IMG/VR virus record: IMGVR_UViG_3300028654_000194
From: an uncultured virus (IMG/VR IMGVR_UViG_3300028654_000194)
Taxonomy: Duplodnaviria > Heunggongvirae > Uroviricota > Caudoviricetes
Direction: 5' to 3' (one strand)
Length of the DNA stretch: 64,000 nt
A program made the position numbers and the translations under genes. The notes under the pieces were generated by a model, which saw only the letters and a program-made list of their open reading frames with translations, ran no database searches and had not been told where the DNA came from. How positions within the stretch are numbered: the stretch's first letter is position 1; each line of letters starts with the position of its first letter. Below, one piece after another: positions 42,043 to 62,974 of the stretch.

Positions 42043-42048
42043 GTTCCT

Positions 42049-43401: not shown

Positions 43402-43430
43402 GTTCGTCTCCGTCTGCACCACCGTGCAGC

Positions 43431-43972: not shown

Positions 43973-44455
43973 TCATGCTGCTGTCCTAGATTTGCGCCAA
44001 GGAATATCGCGGCGATAACGTTCCTTGATTTCCTTATCCACTTTTTCGTGGCGTTCGTCTTCGCCATATTCAGCTTCGATGATTGCCTTCCACACTGTGT
44101 CTGCGCCGGGCACGTCTTCGATCAATCGTCCCGGTGTGTGGCTGTCACCGAACTGATCGATGAAATCGTCACCGTGCCACTTGTTCGTTTTGGTGGTGAC
44201 GATCTTGACGCGGATCAGCGAACGCCTGTGCTTGCCGCTTACGACAGTGCAGATCACTTCACCCTTCGGTGCGCCATAGCCCTGTTCGATCAAGGCTGTG
44301 AACACCGGGAAGGATTGCAGCTTGTCGATCTTGCGCTTGACGCCATCGACAGATGGTGCGCGCACTGTCTCACTGTTCAGCGTGGCTTCGAACTTCGCTG
44401 TCTTCGCGTTGAACGTGATCGCGACATCGCGGTACGTCTGTTTGAACTCATCCAT
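43973..44455 (-). CDS. Hypothetical protein
   Basis: CAGGAG RBS after a cassette. Confidence 0.65.
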   Translation of the reverse strand: MDEFKQTYRDVAITFNAKTAKFEATLNSETVRAPSVDGVKRKIDKLQSFPVFTALIEQGYGAPKGEVICTVVSGKHRRSLIRVKIVTTKTNKWHGDDFIDQFGDSHTPGRLIEDVPGADTVWKAIIEAEYGEDERHEKVDKEIKERYRRDIPWRKSRTAA

Positions 44456-44560
44456 TGCAGTTCTCCTGTGCTGCGCCATCGCGCAGCGTTGTCGTGCAAT
44501 CTTCTGATCGCACTGGATGCCAGCTTCCCATCAGGAAGCTGGACACCACTGCGTTCCTTT

Positions 44561-45664
44561 CTACGACGCCATGTCCAAGATTTTGCCAGCCTTGCGTTCC
44601 AGTTCGACACGCTTGTCCTGAAACTGGATGCCACGTGCGAAGGCCGTGATGCCGGTGGCGATGTCCCACAGGTTCGACACACCGTCCTTCGTGCCCAGCG
44701 GACGACCTTCGTCCGTCTGGAAGGCCGACACGATGTTCTGTGCTTCGCGCTTGGTGAAACGCTTGGCCAAGAACTCATCGATGTTGTCCACGCGCTTGGC
44801 ACGCGCGTCCGTCACCGCCTTGACCACGCCAGCCGAAGATGAGTTGGCGTAGGCTTGGATCGCAGGTGTGACTTCCTCGATCCACTTGTCAGGCGCAGAC
44901 ACCGTGTGGCGCACGGTGATCTGTTCGAAGTTGCATGCACCCCACACGATGCGGTTCATGCAGGCGTAGTCGAACAGGAACGACGCCATGCCCAGCGTGC
45001 GATCACCGACTTCGCTGTTCCACACGAAGAACCCGCGTGCCAGCGCGCCGGACTGTCCGTCGCGGCGGTTCGGGATTTCGATGCGGTTTTCCTCATCCGC
45101 AAGGAAGATGAACATGTCGCGATCACCGGCATACAGCGTGGTGTTCTGTTCGGTGATCGGCACCTTCTTGCCGAACTCACCGGGGACCGTGAAGTCGCCA
45201 GTGATGCCATCGCCGTAGTGTTCAAGGATCGCCTTGGCCACGTCGCTGTTCCAGATGCGCCCGTAGTTCGGACCCGTCGCGGCAGCCAAGACCGGGCTGC
45301 CGTTCTGGCGAAGCAGCAGACCCACGTCCTGAATGTCGCGGTCGTAGCGCAGGCCGAAGTTCAGGGCGTCGGCTGCAATCGGCGCGGGCAACCCGCGCAG
45401 ATAGCCCGCAGGTGCGTTTACAAGACGCGCCAACTGGCCGAACGCATGGTGCGTGGGGAAGAACCCGTTGCCTACCGGGCCGACCACCTGAAGGCCCTTG
45501 GCGTCGTTTTCAGTCGGCTGGATTTCAATCGACCGTGACGACACGACTGCGCCGCGCGACTGCTTGCGCATCTTCAGCGTGGCTTCATGCAAAGCCGTGA
45601 CTGAAAGGAAGCGTTCATCAGCCGGACGCGAAGCCCACTGATGTGATGCTTGATAAAGCTGCAT
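44561..45664 (-). CDS. DUF932/DUF945-like protein
   Basis: WNSEVG, CMNRIVW and LWDIATGIT motifs. Confidence 0.65.
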   Translation of the reverse strand: MQLYQASHQWASRPADERFLSVTALHEATLKMRKQSRGAVVSSRSIEIQPTENDAKGLQVVGPVGNGFFPTHHAFGQLARLVNAPAGYLRGLPAPIAADALNFGLRYDRDIQDVGLLLRQNGSPVLAAATGPNYGRIWNSDVAKAILEHYGDGITGDFTVPGEFGKKVPITEQNTTLYAGDRDMFIFLADEENRIEIPNRRDGQSGALARGFFVWNSEVGDRTLGMASFLFDYACMNRIVWGACNFEQITVRHTVSAPDKWIEEVTPAIQAYANSSSAGVVKAVTDARAKRVDNIDEFLAKRFTKREAQNIVSAFQTDEGRPLGTKDGVSNLWDIATGITAFARGIQFQDKRVELERKAGKILDMAS

Positions 45665-45765
45665 TGTCATTCTCCTTGTACCCAGCCATCGCTGGGCGGT
45701 TGCGTGCAATCTTGTGATCGCACTGGACGCCTGTCGCTTGCGCGACAGGACACCAGCAGGGTCAC

Positions 45766-46005
45766 TCACCAGTGCTTGAACGCCGGGCACCAGTGTGCGT
45801 GCCCGGATAAGCCACCGTTGCAGTCGCAGCGCGTGATGCGCATGTACTGCGGGTTGAACGTGGGCCATGTGGTGAAGAAACGTTCCATCGCATCGGCGCT
45901 GCTGTCGAAGCGCAGTTCACCGATGAAGGGAAGTTCCAGCGGCACCCAACGTGTCACCGGATAGCCGCCATAGGTGCCGAACTTTTTCCACTGGATGACG
46001 ACCAT
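45766..46005 (-). CDS. Hypothetical protein
   Basis: GGAGG RBS. Confidence 0.55.
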   Translation of the reverse strand: MVVIQWKKFGTYGGYPVTRWVPLELPFIGELRFDSSADAMERFFTTWPTFNPQYMRITRCDCNGGLSGHAHWCPAFKHW

Positions 46006-46006
46006 A

Positions 46007-46228
46007 TCAGCGGCCTCCGCTTACGTAGTGGCTGCACAGGTCGAACAGTTGGTCGCGTTCCAGCGTTGCTACAACGCGGCGCACGCTTTCACCATCTTCG
46101 TACCACCCCTTCGCGTGCTTGAAGCCGGGGTCAGGGATGTGGCGTTCGGCGCAAGCGTGCGCCAGAAACCCCCACCACACCAAGAACTCGGTCGTGGCGC
46201 ATGTCGCGTTCAGTTGTGAATTTGGCAT
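46007..46228 (-). CDS. Hypothetical protein
   Basis: AAGGAG RBS after a cassette. Confidence 0.6.
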   Translation of the reverse strand: MPNSQLNATCATTEFLVWWGFLAHACAERHIPDPGFKHAKGWYEDGESVRRVVATLERDQLFDLCSHYVSGGR

Positions 46229-46325
46229 TGTCAGTCTCCTTGTGCGCCACCACCGTGGCGCGTTGTCGTGCGGTCTTGTGATCGCACTGGATGCCGGTCG
46301 TCTTCACGACCGGACACCAGCAGGG

Positions 46326-46718
46326 TCAAAGGGAATTTTCAGCAACGCCGTGCTGTTCGACGTAGTCCACGAAGTCGCCGGGGTACATCTTCTTCATCAT
46401 CGCTTCGTTCAGGCCACCGATCTTCTTGAAACCGAACTGGGCGACAACGTGGAAACCGCGTGCGTCCTGCACGACATCGCCAACGGACAGCGAAGACATG
46501 CGGTCAACCAGCTTGCGAACCAGACTGCCACCGTTCCACAGGTTCAACATCTCGAAGGCGTGTTCCATGTCGTGGGCGTCCACGATGGCGACAGCGCGAT
46601 ACATGCCCGCCGTCAAAGCAAGCGCCACATCTTCCATCTTGCCGAAGCAGCGGATGTCGCGCGCGGTGTTAGACATAAGATGCACAGGCTTCATCTGCCA
46701 GATTGTGTAGTTCGTCAT
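46326..46718 (-). CDS. YodL-like protein
   Basis: YTIWQ, FEMLN, SLSVGDVV and V..FGF motifs. Confidence 0.65.
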   Translation of the reverse strand: MTNYTIWQMKPVHLMSNTARDIRCFGKMEDVALALTAGMYRAVAIVDAHDMEHAFEMLNLWNGGSLVRKLVDRMSSLSVGDVVQDARGFHVVAQFGFKKIGGLNEAMMKKMYPGDFVDYVEQHGVAENSL

Positions 46719-46814
46719 GTCAGTCTCCTTGTGCGCCACCACCGTGGCGCGTTGTCGTGCGGTCTTGTGATCGCACTGGATGCCAGCCGCTTGCGCGGCT
46801 GGACACCAGCATGG

Positions 46815-47153
46815 TCAGGCTGTGACCGTGAACTTCTTGTTGCGACGTGCGCGCTTCTCTGCGGCAGCGAAGTATTTTTCCATCGCGGCATGCGCGGCTT
46901 CGACTGTCTTGTGTTCGGTGCGGTTGAACGCGGGGCCGTACTTCTTGCCAGCGCGCAGCGCCCGCACCCACAACCAGATTGCATCGTCCGCGTTGTCGCG
47001 GTTCCAGTAGGCATGCTGTGCGTTTGTTTCTTCATGGTATTGCGTGCGAACGATCATCGCATGCGCGCCAACCGCGCGACCGAAGTTGTCCTTCACCGCG
47101 AAGGTGCGATCTTCAGTGTGCAGCGTTTCGGATTTCGTTTCGTTGACCTTCAT
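46815..47153 (-). CDS. Hypothetical protein, first gene of the leftward early operon
   Basis: GGAG RBS directly after hammerhead copy 2. Confidence 0.6.
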   Translation of the reverse strand: MKVNETKSETLHTEDRTFAVKDNFGRAVGAHAMIVRTQYHEETNAQHAYWNRDNADDAIWLWVRALRAGKKYGPAFNRTEHKTVEAAHAAMEKYFAAAEKRARRNKKFTVTA

Positions 47154-47183: not shown

Positions 47184-47245
47184 GTTCAGCGTTTCGATCA
47201 ATACTGTGATCATCATCAGCACGACTGTTTGTCGTGGACGCTAAC
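47184..47245 (-). ncRNA. Type III hammerhead ribozyme, copy 2
   Basis: GTTAGCGTC^CACGAC-AAACA-GTCGTG-CTGATGA-T-GATCA-CAGTAT-TGATC-GAAAC-GCTGAAC; stem II covaries with copy 1. Confidence 0.9.
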
Positions 47246-47404
47246 TTCGACCCCATGCAGGCTTCCTGCTCTGGCGCTACTGACCCTCATCGCGTGCTAC
47301 GAACATCCGCCTTCACATCTGGCTAACGTCCGCATCCCGACTTGGGCGGGTCCGATTTTCCCGCCACCGTCACTTGACCGGGGGAACCACCGGGGACCAC
47401 CCGG

Positions 47405-47540
47405 CACAACGCAAATAGATCAAAAAACAGGGGCGCTGTAAATACGAGAAACAGGGGGTTTCGTATTTATTTTTGGGAGATTTTTGGCGGGAAAGCTGGG
47501 TTTTTACAGGGGGGTTCAAATACGAGGGTTTCCGATACCT
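47405..47540. promoter_or_regulatory. Divergent promoter region with AAATACGA operator-like repeats
   Basis: TAAATACGAGAAAC-AGGGG-GTTTCGTATTTA inverted repeat at 47438-47469; further AAATACGAG at 47518 and at 43681 in the second leftward promoter; TTTACA/TTTACT -35-like hexamers on -. Confidence 0.6.
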
Positions 47541-48520: not shown

Positions 48521-48815
48521 CCGCCGCGACAACGACACGGTCGTGTTCGAACATGACGGCATCCGCTACCACGCGACCGCCAGCTTCATCGACGGTCAAC
48601 TGGCGGAAGTGTTCTTGGATGGCCCGAAGGCCGGATCGCTGGCCAGCATGGTCGCGCGCGAAAGCGCCGTGCTGCTATCGCTGGCGCTTCAGCACGGCAC
48701 GCCGGTCAGCGTGCTGCGCGAAGCGTTGCCGAAGCTGCCGAATGGTGCGCCTGCCGGGCCGATGGGGGCAGCACTATTTGCCATAGACCACATCATTGCC
48801 AATGTCCGCGCCTAG
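48498..48815 (+). CDS. Stand-alone class II ribonucleotide reductase C-terminal-like (TSCPD-type) domain
   Basis: RLPNRR, AEVFLD..KAGS and SLALQHG motifs. Confidence 0.65.
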   Translation: MTRKRLPNRRDNDTVVFEHDGIRYHATASFIDGQLAEVFLDGPKAGSLASMVARESAVLLSLALQHGTPVSVLREALPKLPNGAPAGPMGAALFAIDHIIANVRA

Positions 48816-51662
48816 CGGCAGACCGGCTGCCCAGTCAGGGCCGGTGGTCATTACGGACTGAAGCACCTGACGCGCGTCTGCGACTTCATCATCCGGCACT
48901 TCCATGATCGCTTCGTCATGCGTGTGCCCGATCAGGCAGTCGTTCCAGTCCAGATCGCACAGGCGGCGCAGCGTCCAGCGCAGCAGCGATGCTGCTTCGC
49001 CCTGCGTGCAGTTCGATACGATGAACGGCATACCATCCTGTCCGCGCACAACGAACCTGTGACGCGGGCCTGCGTTCAGAAGATCGTAGACCGGCGATAA
49101 CCGTTGCCCAGATCGACCGGAAGGAATAGATCGGCCACTGGCCACTGACGCGCCAGACGATACGCCAGCGTGGTCGCGCCAATCCCTGTTAGTTCTGACG
49201 CCTCGCACAGAAGCATCCTGCCTTTGGGCGTATCGATCACGCGGCTGTTGCGACGGTTGCGCGATTGCTGTGACCACGTGCGCCATGCGCAGTTCTTCGG
49301 GGTATATCCTTTGTTGTTGTTCAATCGATCCAAGGTAAGGCCGGGCGCGTAAGTCGGCCCCATGTCGTCCCAGAAATTTTGGAACTTGCGCCAGCGCTTG
49401 CACACTACGATGCCGCGCCTGCCATAATTGCCCCACGCCTGATGCGATGGCAGACGGCACCGATCCAGCATAGACCGCCATACGGCAAAAACCGGGTGCG
49501 CTGACATTCCATGTGTCGTCAAACGCTGCGCCGCCCTTTCGCGGCGTAGACACCCGCAACTGTGGACGCGTCCTTTCGTAATCTCCACGCCTATACGTTT
49601 GATCGTCTTGCCGCAGTCGCATCGCGCCCACCACAGCATTTTTTGACCGTTGCTGCCTGCGCTGCGCAAGATCGTCAGCCGTCCAAACTTCTGCCCGCGC
49701 AAATCCCTGCGTCGCCAGTCCATGGTGTGTGTCCTTTGCAGCTTTCCAAACCCCGGACACTAGCACCTTGTGGTCTTCCGTCAATAATACCCCGCCGAAG
49801 GACATGACAGGCTGCACACCTTGATACGTCAGACCATCGTGGCGAACAAATTCAACGCCATCGTGGACACGATCCGCGATACTGACATCCACAATATGCT
49901 TCCAGCCACTGTCTGTCAGAACTTCCGTGTTCGGGCCAAGACAGTTCTCCGCTTGGATGCCGCCGTACAGCTTCATGCGCGGCCAGTAGTTCGATCCATG
50001 CTTCGGGTGCCACGCACCCTTGATCGCGGTGATCGCCTGCTGCGGCCCGAAGCGGCTGCTGACCGTTTCGATCTTGGCGAACGGGTACGCCAGCATGCGA
50101 CCGCTGGGCAGCATGCACCACAAGACGCTGCTGGCGAACATGTACCGGACGCGCCCGGCAGTGAAGACGCATTCGGGGTTGCGCACGGCGCTGAACGCAG
50201 CGTCTTCCAGCGCGCGCCAGAAGCGCGGTGCCCATGGGTTGGCGTTGCGCCAGCGGCGCTTGTACTCATCCGCCGTGCTGTCGCTGACGTGCAGGTCGTA
50301 GTTGTGCGCCATGACTTGGAACGCGCCGACGCCGCCACCGAAGCCGAACGCCAGCACGGCCACCTTGCCGCCCTGCCGCAAGTTCTTGTCCACGTCTTCG
50401 GGCGCGACGCCGAACATGCCTGCCGCCTGCTGCACATAGATGTCTTCGCCGCGCGCGAAGGTGTCCAGCACGGCGCTGGCGCTGTTCTCCTTGGACAACC
50501 ATGGCAGCACGCGGGCTTCGATGGCCTTCCAGTCGCCCCACACGAACTGCTTGCCTTCCTCTGCCACGATGGAAGGACGCAGCGTGCGCGACAGCGTGGT
50601 CAGCACGTTGTAGCCGGACAGCTTGATCAGTTCGGACTTGGGCGTGCGCCGCAGGATCGCTTCGACCACGTCTTCGATGTTGTCCAGCTTGGCGCGGACG
50701 AAGTTGTGAAGCTGGGCACCAGTGGATGAGAAGCGTCCGGTCTGCCCGGCACCGCTGAAGACGTAGGCACCGCGCACACGGCCATCCGGCCCGGCGCGCA
50801 TCTCCATGGCGCGGAACTTGGCGGTGCTGGCGCGGCCACCGTCATCGATCAGGCCGACCACTTCGCGCTGGATGACGTTCAGATCGTCGCGTTCCAGAAG
50901 TTCGGCGCGCGCGTCGGCGTCGAACTTGATCTTGCCGTGCGCGTTCTCCTGCAACACCGGGCCGAACCAGTCCTTGATGCGCTGGAACTGCTTGGGGCTG
51001 GTGATGCTGCCGCACGTCAGTTCGTCCAGCCGGACGCAGATGTCGGTCAGTTCATCACGTGCGTAGTGCTGCGCGGCACGGATCAGGTCTAAGTCAACCG
51101 GCAGACCCTTGTCGTTGATCATCTCCGTGATGACCCAGTCGCGCTGTTCGTCCGGCGACAGTTCGCGAACCGTGCGTCCTAGTCCCATCTCCGTGTGAAC
51201 ATCGACGTCACAGTAAGCGCACAGTGCATGAAACTCCTGCGGATCGTCTGCCCAGCCGCCGTTCTTCAGCGGCTTGCACCACTTCAACATCACGCTGTTG
51301 TCCGACTTCTGCACCGGCATGCGCAACGCCTTGGCGCACATCTCCAACTTGCCGGGCAGCGCCATCGACCGGGCGCGCGCCATGGTGCAGCGGAAGCGTT
51401 CGGCTGGGATGTCCATCTTCAACACGAACTTCAGGATCAGCCGTTCGAAGGCTGCGTTCCACGCGTGGATCGTTTCGCTGGCCAAGGCTGCCTTCAGATC
51501 GTCCGGCATGGCTTCGCCTTCCCACGCGCGCCACTGCTTCACCGTCAGGCCATCAAGGCTGTACGATGCGCACAGCACGCTGGTAGACGGATGCTGCGCA
51601 TAGATGTAGCTGCCGACCAGCTTCAGATCGACGGTGCTTCGGGTTTCGAAATCAAGGTTCAA
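48774..51662 (-). CDS. Family A DNA polymerase with intein
   Basis: Exonuclease LDFET, AWNAAFER, YCDVD; polymerase TGRFS, DWKAIEARV, RQGGKV..LAFGFG, HTHDE motifs. Confidence 0.92.
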   Translation of the reverse strand: MNLDFETRSTVDLKLVGSYIYAQHPSTSVLCASYSLDGLTVKQWRAWEGEAMPDDLKAALASETIHAWNAAFERLILKFVLKMDIPAERFRCTMARARSMALPGKLEMCAKALRMPVQKSDNSVMLKWCKPLKNGGWADDPQEFHALCAYCDVDVHTEMGLGRTVRELSPDEQRDWVITEMINDKGLPVDLDLIRAAQHYARDELTDICVRLDELTCGSITSPKQFQRIKDWFGPVLQENAHGKIKFDADARAELLERDDLNVIQREVVGLIDDGGRASTAKFRAMEMRAGPDGRVRGAYVFSGAGQTGRFSSTGAQLHNFVRAKLDNIEDVVEAILRRTPKSELIKLSGYNVLTTLSRTLRPSIVAEEGKQFVWGDWKAIEARVLPWLSKENSASAVLDTFARGEDIYVQQAAGMFGVAPEDVDKNLRQGGKVAVLAFGFGGGVGAFQVMAHNYDLHVSDSTADEYKRRWRNANPWAPRFWRALEDAAFSAVRNPECVFTAGRVRYMFASSVLWCMLPSGRMLAYPFAKIETVSSRFGPQQAITAIKGAWHPKHGSNYWPRMKLYGGIQAENCLGPNTEVLTDSGWKHIVDVSIADRVHDGVEFVRHDGLTYQGVQPVMSFGGVLLTEDHKVLVSGVWKAAKDTHHGLATQGFARAEVWTADDLAQRRQQRSKNAVVGAMRLRQDDQTYRRGDYERTRPQLRVSTPRKGGAAFDDTWNVSAPGFCRMAVYAGSVPSAIASGVGQLWQARHRSVQALAQVPKFLGRHGADLRARPYLGSIEQQQRIYPEELRMAHVVTAIAQPSQQPRDRYAQRQDASVRGVRTNRDWRDHAGVSSGASVASGRSIPSGRSGQRLSPVYDLLNAGPRHRFVVRGQDGMPFIVSNCTQGEAASLLRWTLRRLCDLDWNDCLIGHTHDEAIMEVPDDEVADARQVLQSVMTTGPDWAAGLPLGADIGNDVVYGK
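49011..49943 (-). mobile_element. Intein (311 aa) in the DNA polymerase
   Basis: Begins CLGPNTEV after YGGIQAEN; block B LTEDH; block F VYDL; ends IVSN followed by Cys (CTQG). Confidence 0.9.
49076..49723 (-). CDS. HNH-type homing endonuclease encoded out of frame inside the intein
   Basis: GQKFGRLT, CDCG, SCGC, WRSMLDRC, YGRRGI.VC.RW, LDRLNNNKGY.P.NC.W motifs; own AAAGGA RBS 8 nt upstream of ATG. Confidence 0.9.
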   Translation of the reverse strand: MDWRRRDLRGQKFGRLTILRSAGSNGQKMLWWARCDCGKTIKRIGVEITKGRVHSCGCLRRERAAQRLTTHGMSAHPVFAVWRSMLDRCRLPSHQAWGNYGRRGIVVCKRWRKFQNFWDDMGPTYAPGLTLDRLNNNKGYTPKNCAWRTWSQQSRNRRNSRVIDTPKGRMLLCEASELTGIGATTLAYRLARQWPVADLFLPVDLGNGYRRSTIF

Positions 51663-52823: not shown

Positions 52824-53918
52824 CTAGGCTCCTAGTTGTTTGAGTGCTTGTCCTATGGCGGCTGCCGGTAGGACTTCGGGTCGTTTGTCGTCTTGTGTTG
52901 CGATGGTCGTGCCTGAAGACACAGGCGAAGCAAGACCGTCTATTTTCAGTTTCTTTTTTTCTGCTTGTGCTGGTGTGATGAGTTGTTTCTTGATGTACGT
53001 GTCTTCGCTGATACCTTGATCGGCAAACGTTTTGGCTGTCAAGGCTTCGTCATTCCACTGGCGCACGGCCCGCTTGTTCACCAGCTTCCACCCCGGAACA
53101 GCAACGCCGTGTTCCAGTTCGTGGTGGATGCGGTCTTCCGCTTCTTCACGCCAGTCATCCCATGATCTTATCTTCGCAAGGCGGTCGCCCAGTTCGGCCA
53201 GATCAAGGATGTGGTTCGGCGCGGTGAGAGTTGCCAGCCGCTGTGTCTTCAGCGGGCAGACAAGCTTCGCATCGCACCACTTGCACCATTTGCCTTCCGC
53301 GAAGGTCGGCATCGGTGATCGCGCTGCTTTCAATGCCGCGTACAGGGACATCTCGAAAGCAGTCAAGTCTTCCGCCGTGACCGTGTGACTGTCGATGGCG
53401 GGGTCCATCGTCGGCTGGATGATCACCAGTTCGATAGTCTTGGGTTTCAGTCCCAGCGTCTTGCGCGCAGCGGCAGCGTAGAACATCGCCTGTGCGTTCG
53501 CTTCCGCCTCCACCACGATCTGGCCGAACTTGAAGTCGGCCACGACCAGATGGTCGTTGTGATGGAACAGGATGTCGGACGTGCCCCACGCTTCGGGTTC
53601 CAGTTCGACCCGCTGTTCCGCCCAGATGCCGCCGGGGTGCTTCGCCGCCAGCATGTCGAACGCTTCCAGTGCGACCTTGATCGCGCCGATTTCGTCTTCC
53701 CCCAGCCGGATGCCTTCGACAGTCGCGCCAAGGAACGCATCAGGATGCTTGTCGGCATCGTTGATCAGCAGTTCCATCACGGTATGCTGCGCGGTGCCGA
53801 CTTGCGCAGCCATACCAGCCGGGCGCTTCGGCACCTGTTCCAGCAGGCTGGTGCTGCCTGCACAATTCATCCAGCGCGCGGCACTGCTGCCGCCGAATTT
53901 CGCATGGTTCATTTTCAT
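52824..53918 (-). CDS. Cas4-like PD-(D/E)XK exonuclease (DUF2800-like)
   Basis: SSAARWMNC, GT..H, GTSD, DFKFG, Q...YA and WCKWC.....C motifs. Confidence 0.85.
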   Translation of the reverse strand: MKMNHAKFGGSSAARWMNCAGSTSLLEQVPKRPAGMAAQVGTAQHTVMELLINDADKHPDAFLGATVEGIRLGEDEIGAIKVALEAFDMLAAKHPGGIWAEQRVELEPEAWGTSDILFHHNDHLVVADFKFGQIVVEAEANAQAMFYAAAARKTLGLKPKTIELVIIQPTMDPAIDSHTVTAEDLTAFEMSLYAALKAARSPMPTFAEGKWCKWCDAKLVCPLKTQRLATLTAPNHILDLAELGDRLAKIRSWDDWREEAEDRIHHELEHGVAVPGWKLVNKRAVRQWNDEALTAKTFADQGISEDTYIKKQLITPAQAEKKKLKIDGLASPVSSGTTIATQDDKRPEVLPAAAIGQALKQLGA

Positions 53919-53996
53919 CCTCCTCGTTGTTGTTCAGCGATGGCACTTTGCTTTCCGCGTGCACGGTGAACGTGCCATCCAGATTGTAGTGGTCAT

Positions 53997-54212
53997 CTAA
54001 TCCCACTCCGGTGCAGCAATCTGTGAGATGATGCGAAGTTCACAACGCTTGCAGACGAATGCGCCGATGCAGCATGCCCATGGCCGTCCGCACAACTGGT
54101 GTTCTTTCACTTCGGTATCGGTGGCTTCGACCTTGCGCGCGTAGCCTCCGCAGGCGGGACACTCACACGCATTCGCATTGCGCGGCAACGTTTCAGTCAG
54201 GATGACGGGCAT
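53997..54212 (-). CDS. Small Cys-rich zinc-binding protein
   Basis: CPAC, CG...CC and CKRC motifs. Confidence 0.6.
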   Translation of the reverse strand: MPVILTETLPRNANACECPACGGYARKVEATDTEVKEHQLCGRPWACCIGAFVCKRCELRIISQIAAPEWD

Positions 54213-54286
54213 GTGTCTGGTCCTAGTTCGAACGACCCCTTTACCACGATATTGTAATGCACCGCAATACCTGATAAAGAGGCCGG

Positions 54287-54466
54287 ATGCGTAAAGTCAC
54301 CAGTTTCCAGTTGCCTTCTCCCCTGCTGCACCAGCTTCACGCTGCTGCGGCCAACAATCCATACGGCATGACGGCGTCGCAGATCATCCGGCGCGGCATC
54401 GAACTGGCGCTGGCAGAGATTGCGAAGGACATGCGCAAACAGAAACTGAGGAAGGCACGGTCATGA
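54287..54466 (+). CDS. Ribbon-helix-helix-like regulator
   Basis: MRKVTSFQLP..L..L...A ... SQIIRRGIELAL; GAGG RBS; at a divergent promoter; not in the ORF track. Confidence 0.6.
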   Translation: MRKVTSFQLPSPLLHQLHAAAANNPYGMTASQIIRRGIELALAEIAKDMRKQKLRKARS

Positions 54467-54663
54467 CAGGTAAGCTTCACGCAGGACAGCGTCAGCGGCA
54501 TGAACATCTTACGCAACAGGAAATCGTTGCGCTGAAGTCTGAAATTCGTTCTGACTACTTCGGCGCGATACGCAAGACCCTCGTGATGGATCGTCTGTGC
54601 GCGAAGTACCGCATCAGCAGCCGCGTGTTTCAGAAGTACGTCAGCTATGTGAGGCAAGGATGA
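54463..54663 (+). CDS. Small HTH-like hypothetical protein
   Basis: LTQQEI...LCAKYRIS pattern; ATGA coupling. Confidence 0.5.
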   Translation: MTGKLHAGQRQRHEHLTQQEIVALKSEIRSDYFGAIRKTLVMDRLCAKYRISSRVFQKYVSYVRQG

Positions 54664-55187
54664 CGCCGATAGAACAAGTGGCCCGCGCGATCTGCGCAGC
54701 ATTCAGCGACAAGAACGATTATGATCCTGATGAACTGGTCTATCGCGACAGTCTGAACAAAGACTACACGCTTGTGCCGCGCTGGCGCTTCTGGATGAAG
54801 GAAGCAGAAGCTGCTTTGTCTGCGATGCCGTCGCTGACACCGTTGAACGCGCTGGCAGCGCAGTGCCATGCAGCGAACGCCACATGGTGGCGCGATCCTG
54901 CGACCGGCGAACGTCTTCAGCGCAACAAGGGCGAACTGCTAATGCTGATCGTCAGCGAAGTGGTCGAAGCCATGGAGGGCGAACGCAAGAACCTGATGGA
55001 CGATCACCTGCCGCATCGCAAGATGGCGGAAGTGGAACTGGCTGACGTTCTCATTCGCCTGTTCGATTACGCTGGCGCGTTCGGATACGATCTGGATGGC
55101 GCACTGGCAGAGAAGCGCGCGTACAATGCGCAGCGTGCAGATCACAAGCCTGAAGCACGGCTGGCCGCTGACGGCAAGAAGTGGTGA
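54660..55187 (+). CDS. MazG-like nucleotide pyrophosphohydrolase
   Basis: SEVVEAMEG, EVELADVLIR and EKRAYNAQR motifs. Confidence 0.8.
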   Translation: MTPIEQVARAICAAFSDKNDYDPDELVYRDSLNKDYTLVPRWRFWMKEAEAALSAMPSLTPLNALAAQCHAANATWWRDPATGERLQRNKGELLMLIVSEVVEAMEGERKNLMDDHLPHRKMAEVELADVLIRLFDYAGAFGYDLDGALAEKRAYNAQRADHKPEARLAADGKKW

Positions 55188-55289
55188 AAGAGTATGCGGG
55201 ACGATCTTGAAACCCTTCTCAAGCAAGCGAAGGAGACGGTCGAAAAGATGACGCCAGAAGAACGGACACTGATGTCTCTCCGCCAGAAG

Positions 55290-56548
55290 CGCGCCCCGTC
55301 CCATTGCTCAATTCTGACTGAGGTCGCACCAAACGGCACAATGAAGATTTGGTCTTCGTAGCCGTCCCGCGTCAGCACGATCTTTTCCCCACCACTAACT
55401 TTGAGTGTCATATCGGTTTTCATCAGCCCGGCCTTAATCTGACGGTTCAAGTTCAGCAACGTGGTCGTCCGGCTCAAAGGCGTTTGCAGCCTCAAGAAGC
55501 CACATAGCGTCCTCACGAACGCGGGCCGCATCTCGGCTTGCCGCGAAGGGGAATACGTCCGCAACAGGTTCGCCCCTTCGGAAGATGCGAAGGAAACCTT
55601 GCGTCTTTTTCGTGTAGTCCTCGATGGTCCAGATCATCTGGGCGGCCTTTCCTGTCTCAAATTCTTTGCCCCGGTTTATTCCGCCGTCCGGGGCCACGCG
55701 GTATCAGACGAGTCGCGAGCCGGAAGCGTCGGCATTAGTCGCGCTCTCGACAGGAATTTCATGCCCTCTTATTCCAAGTAGATGCCGAAAGGCTTCCCGG
55801 ATATCGAAGCCCGCACACTTCATTCTCCACACAAACATGCTGCTGCGGAACTTCCACGTACGCTCATATTCTCGGTCGGTCATCGTTCGGTCCTTTCCCG
55901 TCTCTAAGCGCCAACGCCAAATTGGCCGTCAGCTTCGGTTAAGTCGCGGTGCAGAACGTTCTCATGGATTGCGACCTCACTATCGTTTTCGCAAAGGTAA
56001 ATTTGCCTGCCCGTTCTAGATAGGACAATCACATGAACGAAGAACTCACCCGGATCATTGGGCGGCGCTAGCGCGACTACCGTGGCGTCCTGATACGGTT
56101 TAAGCGCCTCGATTAGTTGTCTTACTCTCATTGTCGGGCCTTTTATAGGCGTTTCAGGATTTCGTTAATTTCGAGGACTTTGTTCGCTGCCGTCCGGTTC
56201 TTCCGCAGCGCGGTTTTGATGGCAGAAATGATGTTCTGGTATTCGCGCAGCTTGTCAGTCGCTGTTGCCATCATACTTTCGTACTGGTTCATCGACATCT
56301 TGATCTGTCCCTTACGCATGGCGGGCCTTTCGTGTCTATTCTGGAATTTCGGCGTAATGGGTCAAATCCCAAAGCCGAGTGTAGTTGTCAATGAACGCCG
56401 TGAAGCCTGCATCGTTGTCCTTCTCGTGGACCATACTGACGATCCAAACATGTGAGCGGTTGCCGTGAGCATCGCGCGCCTTGATGTTGTTCGTCACAAG
56501 CACCTTGCGCTTAATCTCGCCCTTGATTGGTTTCCACGCTCGCGTCAT
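55290..56548 (-). other. Leftward arm of a small-gene island: about 6 short ORFs, each preceded by AAGG(C/A)C
   Basis: ORFs near 56336-56548, 56144-56319, 55904-56131, 55704-55883, 55434-55637 and from 55423. Confidence 0.6.
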
Positions 56549-56685
56549 TGGGGGCCTTTCAAAAATCTGGTGCCAGAAGTCAGCTATCCCGCCTCGCGGC
56601 AACGCCTCAATCCTACCGGCACGCCGATATAGGCCGCATTTGCCAAATTGTCAAAACCTGATAGATACATTCCCAGAACAGGGTT

Positions 56686-57261
56686 TTGAAAATGGCAAAA
56701 CGAGGCTTTTACCGCAAATCGGCGCGACACCCGGAAGGGTCGCAAAAGGAAATGCTGATCGCGGCTGGTTACGCGACGCTCTACACGGAAGGCAAAGACG
56801 AGACCGTGATGCACTTCGCATCCAGCGCGCGCGCGAAGGAAGTCATCGGCGTGCCGACACTCGGCAGGCTGGCGTCATCGCGGGATGCGATCCGCGCCGC
56901 CGTCGAAAAGATTTTCGAAAAGGGCGCGATCATTCACGAGGTCGCGACAGGCAGGCGATCCGACAAAGCGCATGATATGGCGCTGATGATGGCCGACGCC
57001 GCTGATGAGATTGGCGCGGACAAGAAGGTCCACGGTCACGCCGCCTCTGTGCGGAACGGCAGCAAGGGCGGAAGGCCAGAGCTTCCTGATCGCATGGACG
57101 ACGACGACGCCAAGCCGATCTGGTACAACGTCAAGCGTTATCCGAAGCCGGAGGACGCGGTGCCACACATGCACGGCTTTAGCGTTTCGACGGCATACAA
57201 GCGACTTGGTGCGCGCGGTTCGCCAGCGGGTCGAAAGTCAAAACGTAAGAGACACCACTAA
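56686..57261 (+). CDS. Small serine recombinase (resolvase/invertase)-like protein
   Basis: FYRKS (Y-x-R-x-S-like catalytic motif), Q...L, LGRLA (DRL-like), GGRP and C-terminal HTH SVSTAYK. Confidence 0.65.
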   Translation: MKMAKRGFYRKSARHPEGSQKEMLIAAGYATLYTEGKDETVMHFASSARAKEVIGVPTLGRLASSRDAIRAAVEKIFEKGAIIHEVATGRRSDKAHDMALMMADAADEIGADKKVHGHAASVRNGSKGGRPELPDRMDDDDAKPIWYNVKRYPKPEDAVPHMHGFSVSTAYKRLGARGSPAGRKSKRKRHH

Positions 57262-57271
57262 GGAGCCGGAG

Positions 57272-59861
57272 ATGAAGTGCGATTACCATCTTTGCGTCGG
57301 CGGCGGGTACGCCAAGGGCGACCGTTCGGACTGCTGCGTATGCTATCGGCCCCGGCCTCTGTCGCGTGACATGCCATCACTTGAAACAACAAGGTTCGCC
57401 GCCTCAGTGGGGCGGGGGTCATCTAACGATAACGAAAGATAATGGAGCCGAGGATGCTGTCGCGGACGGACGAGATGTTGGCAACTGCGGAATGGATGAT
57501 CGAAGACCTCAATGTCGCCAGCGGGTCTCTGCGAGACTACGCGCATCGCCTCCTTGAGCAGAGATTGTCTGTAATGACCATCGGGCAGTTCTCGGCGCTT
57601 GAAGACGCTGCCAGAAAGTTACAGGGCGAAGCATGGGAACGAACCTACGGCAATCGCCGCAGGACACGTTTATAAAAGGAGCGGCTATGACTTGGACACG
57701 GCCAGAGAACATAGACAAGCACCCGCTTCGGTACTCGCCACTCCGCGATCAGATCGAGGGCATCCTGTTGCGTCGGCATTTTGATAAGCGGCTTGACGGG
57801 TATTTTCTTGAAACGTCACTTGAGATTGCTGAAACATTGTCGCCACCCCCAGAGTTAAAGTAGGAGCGACGGATGACAGTTGGCGATGTCCCGGTGTGCC
57901 TGACATGCGGTCAGTACATTTACAGCGTTCCACATCGCTGCGGGGAGCGCCCCGGCTTCGTGTCAAACGCGATGGGCTGCATCTGCCCGCCCGGTTCCGA
58001 GCGCACATGCCAAGGCGCATTGTGCCCACGCCGATCTTTCTCCCTACCGATCACGTAAAGCTAGGAGGCCCTGTGGACGCGATAGAGAAAATCCGCGCAC
58101 GTCGCGAAGCGATCAACGGCGCACCTTGGCGCTATGAAAAGCGCGGGCAGATGGTCTTCGGGTTTTCGGTCGGAGGCTGCAACAAGGAACTGTCAGACTA
58201 TCGCGTTGCCGACATCCGCGGCTGGGGCCACCTTCAGTACATGGGCGAGACACGAGGCGACGGGAAGGCGCAGGCAATGCAGGATGCCAACGGCGAGTTT
58301 ATTGCTCATGCCCCGCAGGACATCGATGTGTTGCTGGCTGAAATTGATCTGCTTCGCGCATCATTGTCGTCACCCCTTGAGAGCAGATAGGAGCCGGACG
58401 TGACCACAACTCGCATTCAACTTCTCGGGTGGCTTGAACATTGCGAGCGCGAGCATCCGGGCAAAGGCACACCCATCCCGACATGGCTCTGCTCGATGGA
58501 CGCGCTCTATGATGAAGTCGGGCGCGGCACCGTCGAGGAGATTGGTATCCAGCCGATTGTTCCGCGCATGGGAATGGTATCGACCATCTACGGACTCACC
58601 GACAAAGGCCGTCAGGAATTTTATTCATCTCTGCCGACACCGGCAGACGTTTAAGAGGAGCGGATCGTGGAAAACCGATGGGCATTCGAGGACTACAGTT
58701 ACCCGCGAACTGGTTGTGCATGTTGTGAGCAGAATATCGGATGCCCGCCGGATGAGAAAAACATCCATCACTGGACTGGTAGTGTGGCTGGGCGGTTATG
58801 GAAAAAGTGTACCCGCCGCGAAATAAGACAATCATTGCCGACACCGGCAAGCGTTTAAGAGGAGCATCTAGTGCCGTCGCATCGCCGCGTTGCCAAACCA
58901 ATCGACCCGCGCAAGGCACTCAACAGCGCCATTGCGATGGATGTTGGCAAGGAGATGGTCGCCTATCTTGAGGTAATGTACCCGGACGTATTCGACAAGA
59001 TGAATGGCGGGTGCAAACTCTCGATCCGCAACCACATTCACAATGACATCATCGCGGCGATGGAAATAGTCGGCGCGGCGAACCATGTAGAGCGTCTCAA
59101 GGAACAGGCAGACTTTCGTCGCCAGTGGGTTGCTGCCTATCGTGGCATGAGACGCAAGAAGCTTGTCGCTACCGGCGACGGAAAGTAGGGAGCGATTGAC
59201 GTGGCGAAGGACTGGCCCTGCAAACTGAAAGACGGAAGCGTCAAGCCGTGTCACGCACTCGCTGCGGTGGTGGATGGCAACTGGATGGAGAAGCGCAAGG
59301 GCATCTTCGTCGCGACGATCATCAACCGAGGCGACGACACTCAGCGTTATCTCTATGGCGTCCGAAGCGGCGACCATACCAAGAAAGGCGTTATGTTTAA
59401 TCACTGCCCGTTCTGCGGCGAGTCGATCCTGCCGGACGCAGCGGCTAAACTTGGCGCTAAGGCAGCGTAAGAAAGAGGAGGCCCGCGTGGAGCGAGAATG
59501 GAAGTGCGGTGAATGTGGGGAATGGGTCTCCACTAAATTCATGCGCCATCACCACCTCTCGCAACCCGCCCCAAGAGTGTCGTTCGATGAGCCAGAGAAC
59601 ACCATGACGTTCGAGGCCACCAGCAATATGACTGTCTACACTCGAAAGCACGAAGATCCGGTTCGCAATGTTGTCATTACCGGCGACGGAAAGTAGGGAG
59701 CGCTTGGAATGACCCGCGAAGACCATCTGAAAGAACTGATCGCCCGATGCGTCGAGCGTCACCAGCGTCAGTGCGAGCAAGAGACGAAAGAGTGGGTCAA
59801 CGAATTGATTGAGATCGAGATGCACAAACCAATCTCTTTCGCCACACTTCTGGAAAAGTAG
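57272..59861 (+). other. Rightward arm of the island: 11 short ORFs joined by a conserved junction motif
   Basis: Starts at 57272, 57454, 57687, 57873, 58073, 58400, 58667, 58871, 59201, 59487, 59709; each follows GGAG. Confidence 0.7.
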
Positions 59862-59872
59862 GGAGACTTTAA

Positions 59873-60133
59873 TTGGCCCAAGACATCAGTGAAACGTTGA
59901 AGCAGCGCGGTGCGCAGTACGGTGTCTTTACGGACAACGCGCAGAACATTCAGAACATCAAGCGCGTGATGCATCAGATGGAAAACTGGAAGAAGCTTGC
60001 GGACGACCAGAAGGAAGCCTTGGAGATGATCGCCGTGAAGATCGGGCGCATCCTGTCAGGCAACCCCGATCTGTATGATCACTGGCACGACATCGCTGGT
60101 TACGCCAAGCTGGTTGCGGATCGGCTGACATGA
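59873..60133 (+). CDS. DUF6378-like protein
   Basis: RGAQYG, KIGRI and DHWHDIAGYA motifs. Confidence 0.75.
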   Translation: MAQDISETLKQRGAQYGVFTDNAQNIQNIKRVMHQMENWKKLADDQKEALEMIAVKIGRILSGNPDLYDHWHDIAGYAKLVADRLT

Positions 60134-60522
60134 CTGAGTTCGCAAGGCACACTGATCCTTCTACTAGCCACCGTGCTGCGCCGGAGGATGACGCACTGAC
60201 ACGGTTGCAGATGCTTGTCGTGGAGTGCCTTGAACAACATCCAAGCGGGCTAACAGTGCCAGAGATTGCAACGATCCTGAGCCTGCCACGCGATACGGTG
60301 TCGCCGCGCATGAAGACCTTGGTGGCGCAGGGTCGCGCACACGACACCGGGTTCGAAAAAATCCCGCCGCGCCACAGGCGGCACTGCATCATCTGGTGCG
60401 CCGGTCTTGGCAACGCGCCACCACCACTGTCACGTCACGCGCGCATGAAACGCGCACTACAAACCATAGCTGCGAACGGCGATGACGTGTCGCGCGAGGT
60501 CGCAAAGGCGGCACTGACATGA
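60130..60522 (+). CDS. Winged-helix DNA-binding protein
   Basis: RHTDPSTS and GLTVPEIA......TVSPR...L motifs. Confidence 0.65.
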   Translation: MTEFARHTDPSTSHRAAPEDDALTRLQMLVVECLEQHPSGLTVPEIATILSLPRDTVSPRMKTLVAQGRAHDTGFEKIPPRHRRHCIIWCAGLGNAPPPLSRHARMKRALQTIAANGDDVSREVAKAALT

Positions 60523-60809
60523 GAGAAAGTCAACTGGAAGCGGTGTGCCGCAAGCGCGCCACGCAACATGGCGGCTATCTGCTGAAGTGGCAGGGAGAAC
60601 GCGGCGTGCCGGATCGCATCCTGACGATGCCGTTCTACGTCGCCTTCATTGAGTTCAAGACGCCGGTCGGCGTGATGAGCGAGATACAGCTTGTGTGGAA
60701 GGTGCGCCTTCAGACGATGGGCTTGAACCACTTCATCGTGCGCAGCGTCGATGACTTCCAAGCGATCTTGGAACAGGCAGAGATAATCAAATCGAGGATG
60801 TCACGCTGA
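60519..60809 (+). CDS. VRR-NUC domain nuclease
   Basis: ESQLE, GVPDRI, FIEFKT and Q motifs. Confidence 0.85.
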   Translation: MRESQLEAVCRKRATQHGGYLLKWQGERGVPDRILTMPFYVAFIEFKTPVGVMSEIQLVWKVRLQTMGLNHFIVRSVDDFQAILEQAEIIKSRMSR

Positions 60810-61021
60810 TGGTAGAGAAAATATTTGTGTGGTCGATGGTCAATCTGGTCGTCGCAGTGATGATCATGGTCGTGGCGGGGGTGTCGTGTATGTATGGCGG
60901 TAGCCCGTCTATCTTCGCTTGCCACGCGTACCTACCGCCAGTGTGGATCGTCACGTGGATAGCCGGAAGCGTTGTGACATTCGTACTGTCTTTCGTTGCC
61001 ACGGTGTGGAGGATGATGTGA
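60809..61021 (+). CDS. Small membrane protein
   Basis: Two hydrophobic segments; TGATG coupling. Confidence 0.55.
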   Translation: MVEKIFVWSMVNLVVAVMIMVVAGVSCMYGGSPSIFACHAYLPPVWIVTWIAGSVVTFVLSFVATVWRMM

Positions 61022-61431
61022 TGAACCAGAACACATCATTGAAGAAGATGCAGGCGATCATCGGGGGCGTGAACGATATGCGCACCGCATATGAAAAGCT
61101 GGAAGGCGAACTGCGCAAGGGTCCGGCGTCCTACTACTTCAGCAAGCTGGAAGTGATGCTGACCGGCCTGTTCAGCTTCGCCAAGTTCCAGATCGGTGAT
61201 CGCGTGAAGCTGGCCGCGGACATCGACGCCAAGGGCGGCTGGTATCACTGCGCGCACTTCCTGAAGAAGGGCGAGATGGCGACCGTTGTTGACATGGACT
61301 ATGACGAACGCGGCTTTTCATACAATGTCGTCTTCGACAACGAAACGTGGATCGACCGCGATGGCGTCAAGCAGCCGGTCGCTAACAAGCATTCGTTCGG
61401 CCTATATGAACGGCATCTGGAAACAGCGTGA
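61021..61431 (+). CDS. Hypothetical protein with SH3-like KFQIGDRV motif
   Basis: GGAGG RBS and coupling to neighbours. Confidence 0.6.
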   Translation: MNQNTSLKKMQAIIGGVNDMRTAYEKLEGELRKGPASYYFSKLEVMLTGLFSFAKFQIGDRVKLAADIDAKGGWYHCAHFLKKGEMATVVDMDYDERGFSYNVVFDNETWIDRDGVKQPVANKHSFGLYERHLETA

Positions 61432-61676
61432 TGAACGACGCAGAGTGGTTTGAGAAAAATCCACACAGGCTTTTCCGTCTGCGCCCCTATGTACCCGGAG
61501 AGTTTGGCAAGCCCATCCCGGTGGGACGGCTTCCTGATGAAGCGATGTTCTTCATCATATCGGCCCGACTGTATGAGGAAATCGCGCGGCGGCTTGTCAT
61601 AACGGACCGCGTGATTGACGACAACGATCACGACTTGGGGTTCGTGTACATCGTCGCAGGGAACGTAGTGACATGA
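61428..61676 (+). CDS. Hypothetical protein
   Basis: WFEKNPHR..R.RP..PGE motif; coupled ORF. Confidence 0.6.
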   Translation: MMNDAEWFEKNPHRLFRLRPYVPGEFGKPIPVGRLPDEAMFFIISARLYEEIARRLVITDRVIDDNDHDLGFVYIVAGNVVT

Positions 61677-62974
61677 AGCCCGCCAGCTACCAGATCGACG
61701 CATCCGGCTTCGTGTACGAACGCGACAGCAGCATGATTTTCGCGCGGATGGGCACAGGCAAGACGCTGTGCAACATGATGGCAATGAACGACTGGCTGAC
61801 GGATGATGCGGCCAAGCGCATCATGGTCGCTGCGCCGTTGCGCGTTGTTGAGAACGTCTGGCGGCAGGAAGCGATGAAGTGGGGCATGCCGTTCAGCTTC
61901 GGCATCTACACTGGCAAGTGCAAGCAGATCGAAGGCCACAACGATGTGATCTTAGTCAATTATGAGAACTTATCGGCGCTGCTGGACACCAACCATGGCT
62001 GCGACGCCATCGTGTTCGATGAACTGAGCAAGCTGCGCAACCCGACAGGCAAGCGCCAGAAGGCAACGCGGCGCGCGGACTGCTTCAAGATCAGGACAGG
62101 CAGCACAGGCACGCCGACGCCGAACGGATTGATGTCGGTCTACGGCATGTGTCAGGCGGTGGGTCTTGGCCATCTTGTCGGAAAGAGTTTCGACAAGTGG
62201 AAGCGCCAGTTCTTCTACCCGACCGACTTCAAGGGTCACGACTGGGTTGCGTTCAAGCACACCGAACTGGAACTGGCGAAGCTACTCAAGCCCTACACCT
62301 ACATCCTTGAGGATGACGCGGTGGAGTTGCCGCCCATCGTGCGCCCGCCGATCCATCTGACGCTGCCGACTGAACTGCGCGAAGTCTACGACCGCATGCG
62401 CGCGCAGTCCGTGTTGTCCGATCTGGACATCGTCGCTGGCAGTGCTGGCGTGCTGCGCAACAAGCTGCGCCAGATCGCGTCGGGCTTCATCTACGACAAC
62501 GCTGGAGCGCCTGTGAAGCTGACCGACTGGCGACTTCGTGTGTTGCAGGACATCGTGGATGAGCAACAGGGTCAGCCGCTGATCATCGCATACGAGTATC
62601 GCGAACAGCTTGCGATGCTGCGGCAGCGGTGGCCGGACGCACCGTTTCTTGGTGGAGGATCGAAGGACAACGACAAGACCATCGAACGCTGGAACAGGCG
62701 CGAACTGCCGCTGCTGTTCCTGCATCCTGCATCAGCCGGTCACGGCCTGAACATTCAGGAAGGCGGCAACGCGATTGCATGGTGGACGCTGCCGGATGAT
62801 CGCGAACTGTACGACCAGACGATTGGCCGTCTGGTGCGCCGGGGGCAGGCCAACAGCCACGTTTTTTCCTATGAACCAGTAGCACAGGACACGGTCGAAA
62901 CCGCCGTCCAGTACGTGCTGGGACAGAAGGACACCGAACAAAAAAACTTTTGGAACGCATTGAAGTCTGCCTGA
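61673..62974 (+). CDS. SNF2-type superfamily 2 helicase
   Basis: MGTGKT, FDELS, TGTP, GHGLNIQ and QTIGRLVRRGQ motifs. Confidence 0.92.
   Translation: MKPASYQIDASGFVYERDSSMIFARMGTGKTLCNMMAMNDWLTDDAAKRIMVAAPLRVVENVWRQEAMKWGMPFSFGIYTGKCKQIEGHNDVILVNYENLSALLDTNHGCDAIVFDELSKLRNPTGKRQKATRRADCFKIRTGSTGTPTPNGLMSVYGMCQAVGLGHLVGKSFDKWKRQFFYPTDFKGHDWVAFKHTELELAKLLKPYTYILEDDAVELPPIVRPPIHLTLPTELREVYDRMRAQSVLSDLDIVAGSAGVLRNKLRQIASGFIYDNAGAPVKLTDWRLRVLQDIVDEQQGQPLIIAYEYREQLAMLRQRWPDAPFLGGGSKDNDKTIERWNRRELPLLFLHPASAGHGLNIQEGGNAIAWWTLPDDRELYDQTIGRLVRRGQANSHVFSYEPVAQDTVETAVQYVLGQKDTEQKNFWNALKSA

Follow-up and report, generated by a model that had tools for sequence, protein, structure and literature searches.

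A probable resolvase-derived regulator at the head of linker-shuffled mini-gene arrays in an uncultured rhizosphere phage

The 64,000-nucleotide (nt) stretch of uncultured caudovirus DNA analysed here (IMG/VR record IMGVR_UViG_3300028654_000194; hereafter the window), which comprises nearly all of a ~64-kb phage genome, carries a two-armed island of tiny genes whose rightward arm is headed by a homologue of the small serine recombinases. With a probability of roughly 0.6, this homologue is a regulator derived from a resolvase, and the mini-gene arrays around it have been shuffled through the linkers that join their genes. The recombinase-like gene and its rightward array would accordingly be the right half of a phage early-gene module that is two-armed and mobile. 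In this module, back-to-back promoters would drive leftward and rightward strings of tiny genes, and the first gene of the right string would encode a resolvase descendant that has lost efficient catalysis and kept its DNA-binding end. This protein most likely binds boxes over both promoters and regulates both arms, by analogy with Tn3 resolvase (TnpR), which represses both divergent promoters in res (PMC7157771). Genes would be gained and swapped by ordinary short-homology recombination between stereotyped linkers composed of a stop codon and a ribosome site, and a 15-mer found in the right arm most likely helps to express the gene downstream of it, as a -35-like or regulator box, and would also lengthen the homology available for exchange.

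The first-pass annotation of this region described the gene at the head of the right arm as serine-recombinase-like, a description borne out by profile, Pfam, and Foldseek comparisons. The 189-amino-acid (aa) protein is encoded on a contig of 64,219 nt. Searched alone, it has no Pfam or PHROG match; the Atlas places it among the small serine recombinases, PF00239 is matched by 42 of 49 aligned family members (E<=0.05), and the family profile retrieves Gin (E 6.7e-12), gamma-delta resolvase (E 5.9e-9), Tn3, and Sin from the PDB. A structure model (pLDDT 92), which has three C-terminal helices and is matched by Foldseek at E 1e-6 over ~176-187 columns, shows together with the sequence that a catalytic domain of resolvase fold is followed first by helix E and then by a C-terminal helix-turn-helix, i.e., the fold and domain order of Tn3/gamma-delta TnpR and Hin/Gin/Cin (PF00239; PDB 1gdt, 2gm4, 4m6f); the C-terminal three-helix domain bears GGRP and GRK arms. 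The family comprises at least 446 divergent representatives at 50% clustering, and seven of the 49 aligned members (P0008, P0013, P0014, P0020, P0047, P0050, and P0059) carry a C-terminal T5orf172/MUG113 fusion. Literature searches at the level of listings and abstract openings, in a collection with few subscription papers, returned no description of this family or layout, and no such family is mentioned in the available portion of a review of recruited mobile-element genes (PMC8987985).

Unlike in resolvases and invertases, the active site is not conserved in this family, and three of its six key residues are changed in the present copy. The six residues described as crucial in Tn3 resolvase are Y6, R8, S10, D36, R68, and R71 (PMC2794168); relative to Tn3/gamma-delta resolvase, the 189-aa protein keeps R8, S10, and R68 and carries Y6F, D36E, and R71S, as well as D67G and a shortened 36-45 loop. 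Residues were counted on the 124 sequences having residues at five filter columns in an alignment of 152 (the three first matches and 149 from a list of 150, the one left out being P0004, which is closely related to the query set): R8 occurs in 109, R68 in 83, S10 in 63 (with T in 19), Y6 in 50, R71 in 11, and D36 in 17, the last in a column that adjoins a gapped loop and is less surely assigned. All six residues are found together in none of the 124 and five of them in seven. Cleavage by Tn3 resolvase fell to 0.0002 of the control with Y6F and 0.0007 with R71A, D36E and R71S not being among the mutants assayed, and catalytic mutants retained intact site binding, synapsis being abolished by none (PMC2794168). 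At the C-terminal end of the family, conservation reaches 0.97 at W144, 0.92 at G162, 0.90 at G173, and 0.88 at G180, the GR arms are well kept, and the recognition-helix positions are variable.

Beside this gene, as beside TnpR, lie two overlapping predicted promoters of opposite direction (Table 1); neither these divergent promoters nor the leftward arm that they adjoin (~55290-56548) had been recorded in the first-pass annotation. The -35 box of the leftward promoter sits inside TTGTCAAAACC, which represents the leftward -35 region as seen on the opposite strand, and a stricter promoter scan passed over this promoter, whose -10 element does not end in T; alphaproteobacterial promoters usually consist of TTG, a 17-bp spacer, and a -10 element that has no -7 T (PMC8407463). 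TTG-N16/18-TA pairs occur on both strands in four of four hubs, an outcome that 7-12.5% of shuffles per hub also reach. Spanning the promoters and the gene start are two inverted boxes (56648/56682), TTGTCAAAACC and GGTTTTGAAAA, which match at 10 of 11 positions across a 23-nt spacer and are candidate operators. The only two exact TTDTCAAAACC matches in the window are this pair, from which the pattern was derived, and a one-mismatch copy stands in the alternative sequence behind 56554. The pair is present as first reported; its supposed relation to the right-arm junction motif amounts to a modest likeness, the two boxes scoring 6.9 and 2.4 bits on the junction matrix and ranking 125th and 637th among 127,972 positions.

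Three independent family loci were compared: L020 (podovirus MW202785, 33% identity) and L022 and L023 (28-38% identity to the first sequence of the alignment). In all three, the family gene heads a rightward run, a leftward gene or arm carries an AAAGG(G)CC ribosome site, and the back-to-back promoter forms resemble those of the present hub. Since the protein has L at R8 in L020, C at R8 and F at S10 in L022, and W at S10 in L023, this layout does not need catalysis. Comparison with arrays beside homologues, as the first-pass annotation had recommended, recovered the same two-armed layout but not the 15-mer: the right arms of L020 (eight junctions) and L023 (11) possess stereotyped stop/ribosome-site joints and no upstream motif (identity 0.27 and 0.25 vs 0.63 in this phage), whereas that of L022 is too short for motif scoring, so the 15-mer is, as far as these few loci show, lineage-specific. 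A pattern search for the left-arm ribosome site gave 62 loci, none with a family member; locus searches with A5 (viral) and A8 (metagenome) found nothing, A1 found only this phage, and a single genome-collection scan yielded one weak, uninformative match. Within the right arm of L023 (7090-7785) there is a second, N-terminally broken member fused to T5orf172/MUG113. In MW202785 (L020 38681-39841, 34891-35679), the left arm faces an annotated integrase across the record origin and an ERF-family gene is present; the module thus occurs also in a phage that is probably temperate and has a strand-annealing protein.

The right-arm junctions of the present phage are distinguished by a motif of fixed spacing. 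The nine 11-mers initially noted, each followed by 13 nt and NRGGAG, are all at their coordinates with GGAG at +26 in nine of nine; the motif is in fact a 15-mer that starts at an invariant A at -4, 30 nt before GGAG, and it is present at nine of the 12 right-arm junctions, the first three (GGAG at 57262, 57444, and 57678) being without it. Columns A-4, T+1, C+4, and A+8 are invariant, positions upstream of -4 are at background, and +12 to +20 are near background. The mean pairwise identity of the 15-mers is 0.63, whereas 5000 draws from the 77 remaining GGAG-anchored sites of the window never exceeded 0.41, with the best window and the choice of 9 of 12 allowed for. On a 35-nt matrix, the nine sites score 23-39 bits and the best other window position 9.5, and eight of the nine hold in leave-one-out scoring, the site at 59451 being weak (0.6-0.8 bits). 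Because stop codons fall at five different offsets (17, 18, 21, 21, 23, 23, 23, 24, and 24) and the motif falls in two codon phases (five and four sites), conservation operates at the nucleotide level, as originally claimed, and the two phases rule out a protein-level origin. The shared open reading frame (ORF) ends SLPTPADV/SLPTPASV and TGDGK (twice) are likewise present, and the tails form three near-identical classes (A, B, and C), similar tails clustering along the array.

At the same junctions, there is no inverted second half-site beside the conserved 15-mer, and the hub copy, earlier likened to hix/gix-type half-sites, contains the leftward TTGACA box. Promoters and terminators are not in excess over shuffles at the junctions, and the folds predicted for the nine (top strand, RNA parameters) differ, with no shared structure. 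The class-B junctions (58631-58646 and 58835-58850) form perfect 6-bp hairpins around ACAC with a compensatory outer-pair change (C-G vs T-A), a fold not found at the other junctions. The 11-mer was rejected as an anti-Shine-Dalgarno arm for translational coupling, as native pairs (-5.7 kcal/mol) hardly differ from swapped ones (-5.6 kcal/mol; permutation p 0.41) and the arm performs no better than shuffled arms (0.86) or random island 11-mers (0.17). A viral-contig motif scan returned 18 loci, of which only two records, both of this same phage, had more than one copy; the best site elsewhere (L017) is situated between structural-type genes and was treated as chance, and an exact 16-nt junction search recovered only this phage. 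Among 95 loci examined, the motif is confined to this phage lineage, single matches elsewhere being isolated. Another assembly (L001 2759-2765, equivalent to window 59187-59189) has one G fewer before ORF 59201, which may be an assembly error, a tolerated change, or a crossover product of two tail classes.

The island arms are a shuffling hotspot in which gene order changes at junctions. The stretch is present in 19 runs, all 2019 rhizosphere metagenomes that may stem from one campaign, and contigs from four of them were mapped on 53500-62000 (X2 may be the source sample). Contig ends within the island coincide with junctions in X2. At 59189, within the ribosome site before ORF 59201, a break occurs in three of the four runs mapped: the upstream sequence is different in X2 and X4, and an X5 contig matches the ORF 59201 gene for 292 nt and then continues with 209 other bases. 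The alternative tail at 59189 has its own motif, TTGCCGTCACC, with A at -4 and the same spacing, and is thus a tenth copy independent of the nine. Left-arm junction 56323/56324 is followed by two different genes, 56337 is preceded by another, and alternatives also exist at 55425 (a gene in X2 and X4 contigs) and 56554; two left-arm joints that were single-contig and short-sided were set aside. All of these breaks (55425, 56323-56337, 56554, and 59189) lie in stop/ribosome-site junctions, and the exchanges in the left arm occur without any 15-mer.

A complementary view of gene entry comes from ORF 58871, which has no usable Atlas match and, counting this phage's own copies, 71 homologues (vs nine for ORF 58073). 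Among the 70 others, 34 end in KK[LI] plus a short, mostly EAK-like tail, and none has the VAT or GDGK end. Two copies of ~80% identity reside in unrelated phage backbones, with no 15-mer or family gene in the available DNA, and their DNA likeness begins at the ribosome site and stops at or before the motif. Taken with the 59189 break, these boundaries indicate that an incoming gene takes its place with a ribosome site before it and the 5' edge of a 15-mer after it, and that residents swap at the ribosome site. Of the recombinase-driven capture or shuffling first suggested, therefore, the hotspot, the changes of order at junctions, and the presence of the ORF 58871 family in unrelated backbones have held, whereas a recombinase acting at the motif is unsupported because the catalytic residues are degenerate, the layout persists without R8 or S10, exchanges occur at the ribosome site, and the left arm is motif-free. 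The excised circles that such a mechanism had been expected to leave were not found, nor was any circularising or right-arm gene-skipping joint, among the loose ends listed for the contigs of the four runs, contigs being prone to lose rare forms.

The 15-mer itself is more probably a promoter or regulator box than a crossover site. A -35-like or activator box is the leading candidate, at somewhat less than even odds; a recombination site and a relic are each unlikely, and a weak operator of the hub protein is more doubtful still. The -35-like element proposed at the outset is certain in form for the hub copy and the leading, if unproven, reading of the junction copies. Were the 15-mer, spacer, and ribosome site a single expression signal belonging to the downstream gene, a new upstream neighbour would have to join above it and read into it, and the sharp 5' edge would consequently be explicable without a recombinase. 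Recombinase-free exchange would also fit the degenerate protein, the motif-free exchanges of the left arm, and the motif-free arms of relatives.

Several observations nevertheless weigh against a non-catalytic regulator and passive linker exchange. The D36 column is less sure. The trio of R8, S10, and R68 is retained in this copy and in 54 of 124 relatives, and an arginine two positions past the R71 column, conserved in 87 of 124, might compensate for the missing one. The hub inverted repeat is marginal, 7% of 200 hub shuffles being as good (p 0.07), and inverted boxes are not significant in the hubs of L020, L022, and L023. The junctions are poor sigma-70 promoters: TTG and TA stand 17-18 nt apart in only four of nine, the TA of those four doubles as a stop codon, and the -7 T is found in none of the nine. 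Furthermore, all three tail classes start sharply at the 5' edge of the 15-mer, and it is at this edge that the native end of ORF 58871 (KKLEAK-like) has been replaced, as site-specific capture would give.

In other explanations, the protein still acts at the 15-mer. If it were a non-canonical but active serine recombinase, capturing genes at the motif and shuffling single-gene cassettes in the manner of an integron, this would account for the retained S10, R8, and R68, the sharp edge and fixed spacing of the 15-mer, the grafted tail of ORF 58871 (its VAT/GDGK end being seen in 0 of 70 other homologues), the outer bases TTGTC...ACC common to the junction motif and hub box, and the clustering of similar tails. 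We consider such activity improbable, however, given Y6F, D36E, D67G, R71S, and the shortened 36-45 loop, the lack of an inverted half-site at the junctions, the position of the sole right-arm exchange seen (26 nt away from where the 11-mer starts, at the ribosome site), the motif-free left-arm exchanges, the lack of circularising or cassette-skipping right-arm joints within the limits given above, and the keeping of arrays by relatives devoid of R8 or S10. A broader version, which is quite unlikely, envisages that phages have their own equivalent of the integron, built on a serine recombinase: a resolvase whose active site has been rewired (S10, R8, and R68 plus the shifted arginine), or a non-cutting one that pairs sites, would recognise the 15-mer, graft captured genes onto a stop-and-ribosome-site tail, and build two expressed accessory arrays circulating among co-occurring soil phages.

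About as improbable as the active recombinase is an architectural role, wherein a catalytically weak protein would bind the 15-mers and the hub and either activate junction transcription or pair junctions, steering host or phage recombination. The conserved DNA-binding end, the variable recognition-helix positions (which would allow lineage-specific sites), and the site binding and synapsis retained by Tn3 resolvase catalytic mutants (PMC2794168) are in keeping with such a factor, as is the 6.9-bit score of the hub box on the junction matrix, which equals some true sites in leave-one-out scoring; yet roughly one 100-nt hub in five would be expected to contain a site of 6.9 bits, the junctions have GCY where the hub box has its AAA core, and in L020 and L023, which possess the protein, no upstream motif, whatever its sequence, marks the junctions. 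The 15-mer could, with similarly low probability, be a functionless relic, namely the decayed 5' part of one ancestral gene tail copied between junctions by recombination. The three near-identical tail classes and the restriction of the motif to one lineage (among the 95 loci, with other single matches isolated) argue for decay and copying, although, across classes, four columns of the motif are invariant and the 9 nt that separate it from the ribosome site are near background, and the spacing is kept in nine of nine across two reading frames as well as in the independent variant at 59189. The L001 junction is 1 nt shorter, through either an error or a tolerated change. The resolvase-derived regulator with linker-mediated exchange is preferred to each of these alternatives.

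Integrons combine the tyrosine recombinase IntI and attI/attC sites with a cassette array of unrelated small genes, and the island resembles them in that a recombinase-like gene and a promoter head a co-oriented array of unrelated small genes with a repeated element; its arms are variable arrays of unrelated single-gene units. The island is not an integron, however: there is no tyrosine recombinase (no integrase-family match among 23 island and flanking ORFs scanned) and no attC-type folding at junctions, two divergent arms are present, the recombinase-like gene points the same way as one arm, and the ribosome site is where exchanges are seen. In serine-invertase shufflons such as p15B Min/mix, a small serine recombinase acts on repeated sites in coding sequence that change C-termini; a small serine-recombinase gene near repeated sites inside coding sequence is shared here, but all island sites are direct repeats between whole unrelated genes, no cassettes are inverted, and the catalytic residues are degenerate. 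Unlike in Tn3/gamma-delta resolvase and Hin/Gin/Cin systems, neither a transposase, a three-subsite res, nor an invertible segment was found, and the gene heads phage mini-gene arrays; the crossover site of small serine recombinases (two inverted half-sites around a 2-bp core) is not found at the junctions, and the hub pair is separated by 23 nt. A parallel in exchange is offered by the PeSL cassettes of the T4-type phages RB49 and phi1, in which small unknown genes of a hyperplastic region are swapped at conserved intergenic expression signals and homologous recombination without a dedicated integrase has been proposed (Arbiol et al., 2010; PMC2839356). Junction exchange at expression signals, in the sense of PeSLs and of Botstein-Campbell linker-mediated modular exchange, is also seen here. 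PeSLs are strong promoters accompanied by terminator stem-loops and give rise to mini-circles, whereas the island has a ~34-nt linker laid over the last codons and stop of the upstream gene, without a consistent hairpin and associated with a gene of resolvase descent at a predicted bidirectional promoter; its linkers do not each hold a strong sigma-70 promoter and a terminator. The present case contributes the fixed-spacing 15-mer, the grafted tail, and within-sample junction exchanges.

Table 1. Coordinates of the island, its predicted hub elements, and the junction modules of the right arm (window positions).
Feature	Position	Strand	Remarks
Two-armed mini-gene island, ~4.6 kb	55290..59870	.	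Left end approximate
Final left-arm ORF	55142..55423	-	Apparently cut near 55290, runs on into backbone antisense; from translation and upstream AAGGCC ribosome site
Five more left-arm mini-genes (55637, 55883, 56131, 56319, 56548)	55434..56548	-	AAAGG(C/A)C ribosome site before each
Predicted leftward sigma-70 promoter	56626..56654	-	TTGACA-N17-TATATC; 10/12 consensus
Predicted rightward promoter	56640..56667	+	TTGCCA-N16-TAGATA; 8/12 consensus; overlaps leftward one
Inverted pair TTGTCAAAACC / GGTTTTGAAAA	56648..56692	.	Candidate operator boxes over promoters and resolvase-like gene start
Small serine-recombinase homologue, 189 aa	56692..57261	+	Degenerate active site
Right arm, 11 mini-genes of ~50-105 aa	57272..59861	+	Mutually unrelated
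Junction module 1	57833..57866	+	15-mer, 15-nt spacer holding stop codon, GGAG; tail class A
Junction module 2	58034..58067	+	
Junction module 3	58360..58393	+	Tail class A
Junction module 4	58627..58660	+	Class B; local 6-bp hairpin
Junction module 5	58831..58864	+	Class B; 28/30 identical to module 4
Junction module 6	59159..59192	+	Class C; grafted onto ORF 58871; exchange point 59189
Junction module 7	59447..59480	+	Weakest copy
Junction module 8	59667..59700	+	Class C; 33/36 identical to module 6
Junction module 9	59832..59865	+	Links island to backbone DUF6378 gene

The block of ~4.6 kb was probably acquired whole, as suggested by two features of the island. Its ORFs have codon adaptation values of 0.36-0.60 vs 0.63-0.76 in 12 backbone reference genes, on which the table itself was trained (some small backbone ORFs score low too), and near 55290 backbone ORF 55194 and left-arm ORF 55423 meet head-on and apparently truncate each other, for which reason the left end is placed there. 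To the right, the first gene beyond the island is the backbone DUF6378 gene. None of the left-arm mini-genes is preceded by a 15-mer, and the five in 55434..56548 have no Pfam or PHROG match at cut-off; right-arm ORFs 58073 and 59201 match PHROGs of unknown function. Family matches in the backbone include DNA polymerase A, DUF2800, an SNF2-type helicase, a VapE-like protein, and NusG, and genes for terminase, portal, capsid, and tail proteins are suggested by their translations. Among annotated phages there is no close backbone relative (best 31.6%, for the DUF2800 protein) and hence no empty-site genome for comparison. The host may, at a guess, be alphaproteobacterial, in view of the AAAGG/GGAG ribosome sites and the promoters lacking the -7 T.

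Additional features were encountered in the backbone. Intergenic repeats of up to ~115 nt, in at least seven copies, lie among minus-strand genes (39226-46818; also 43434-43693 and 47188-47452); with their hairpin-like parts and minus-strand AAGGAG ribosome site, they look PeSL-like. Two copies of a ~250-nt block stand 3.76 kb from each other. The DNA polymerase A gene (48774-51662, minus strand) contains an intein-like insert, recognised by eye, and nested within it in another frame of the same strand is a 215-aa HNH-like ORF (49076-49723) with no Pfam match, the polymerase frame remaining open. Tandem paralogous 248-aa genes (17169-17915 and 17946-18692), ~75% alike in DNA, are probably tail-tube-like.

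How phages acquire and reshuffle tiny genes of unknown function is a long-standing question, and in this island the joints are visible in use, several versions of the module that differ at gene junctions occurring within the same rhizosphere samples. If the resolvase descendant is indeed a regulator, it would represent the conversion of a recombinase into a transcription factor, one placed where the early region of a phage has cI/cro. With one protein, two promoters, and nine motif copies, the 4.6-kb island offers a compact system in which such a conversion can be tested.

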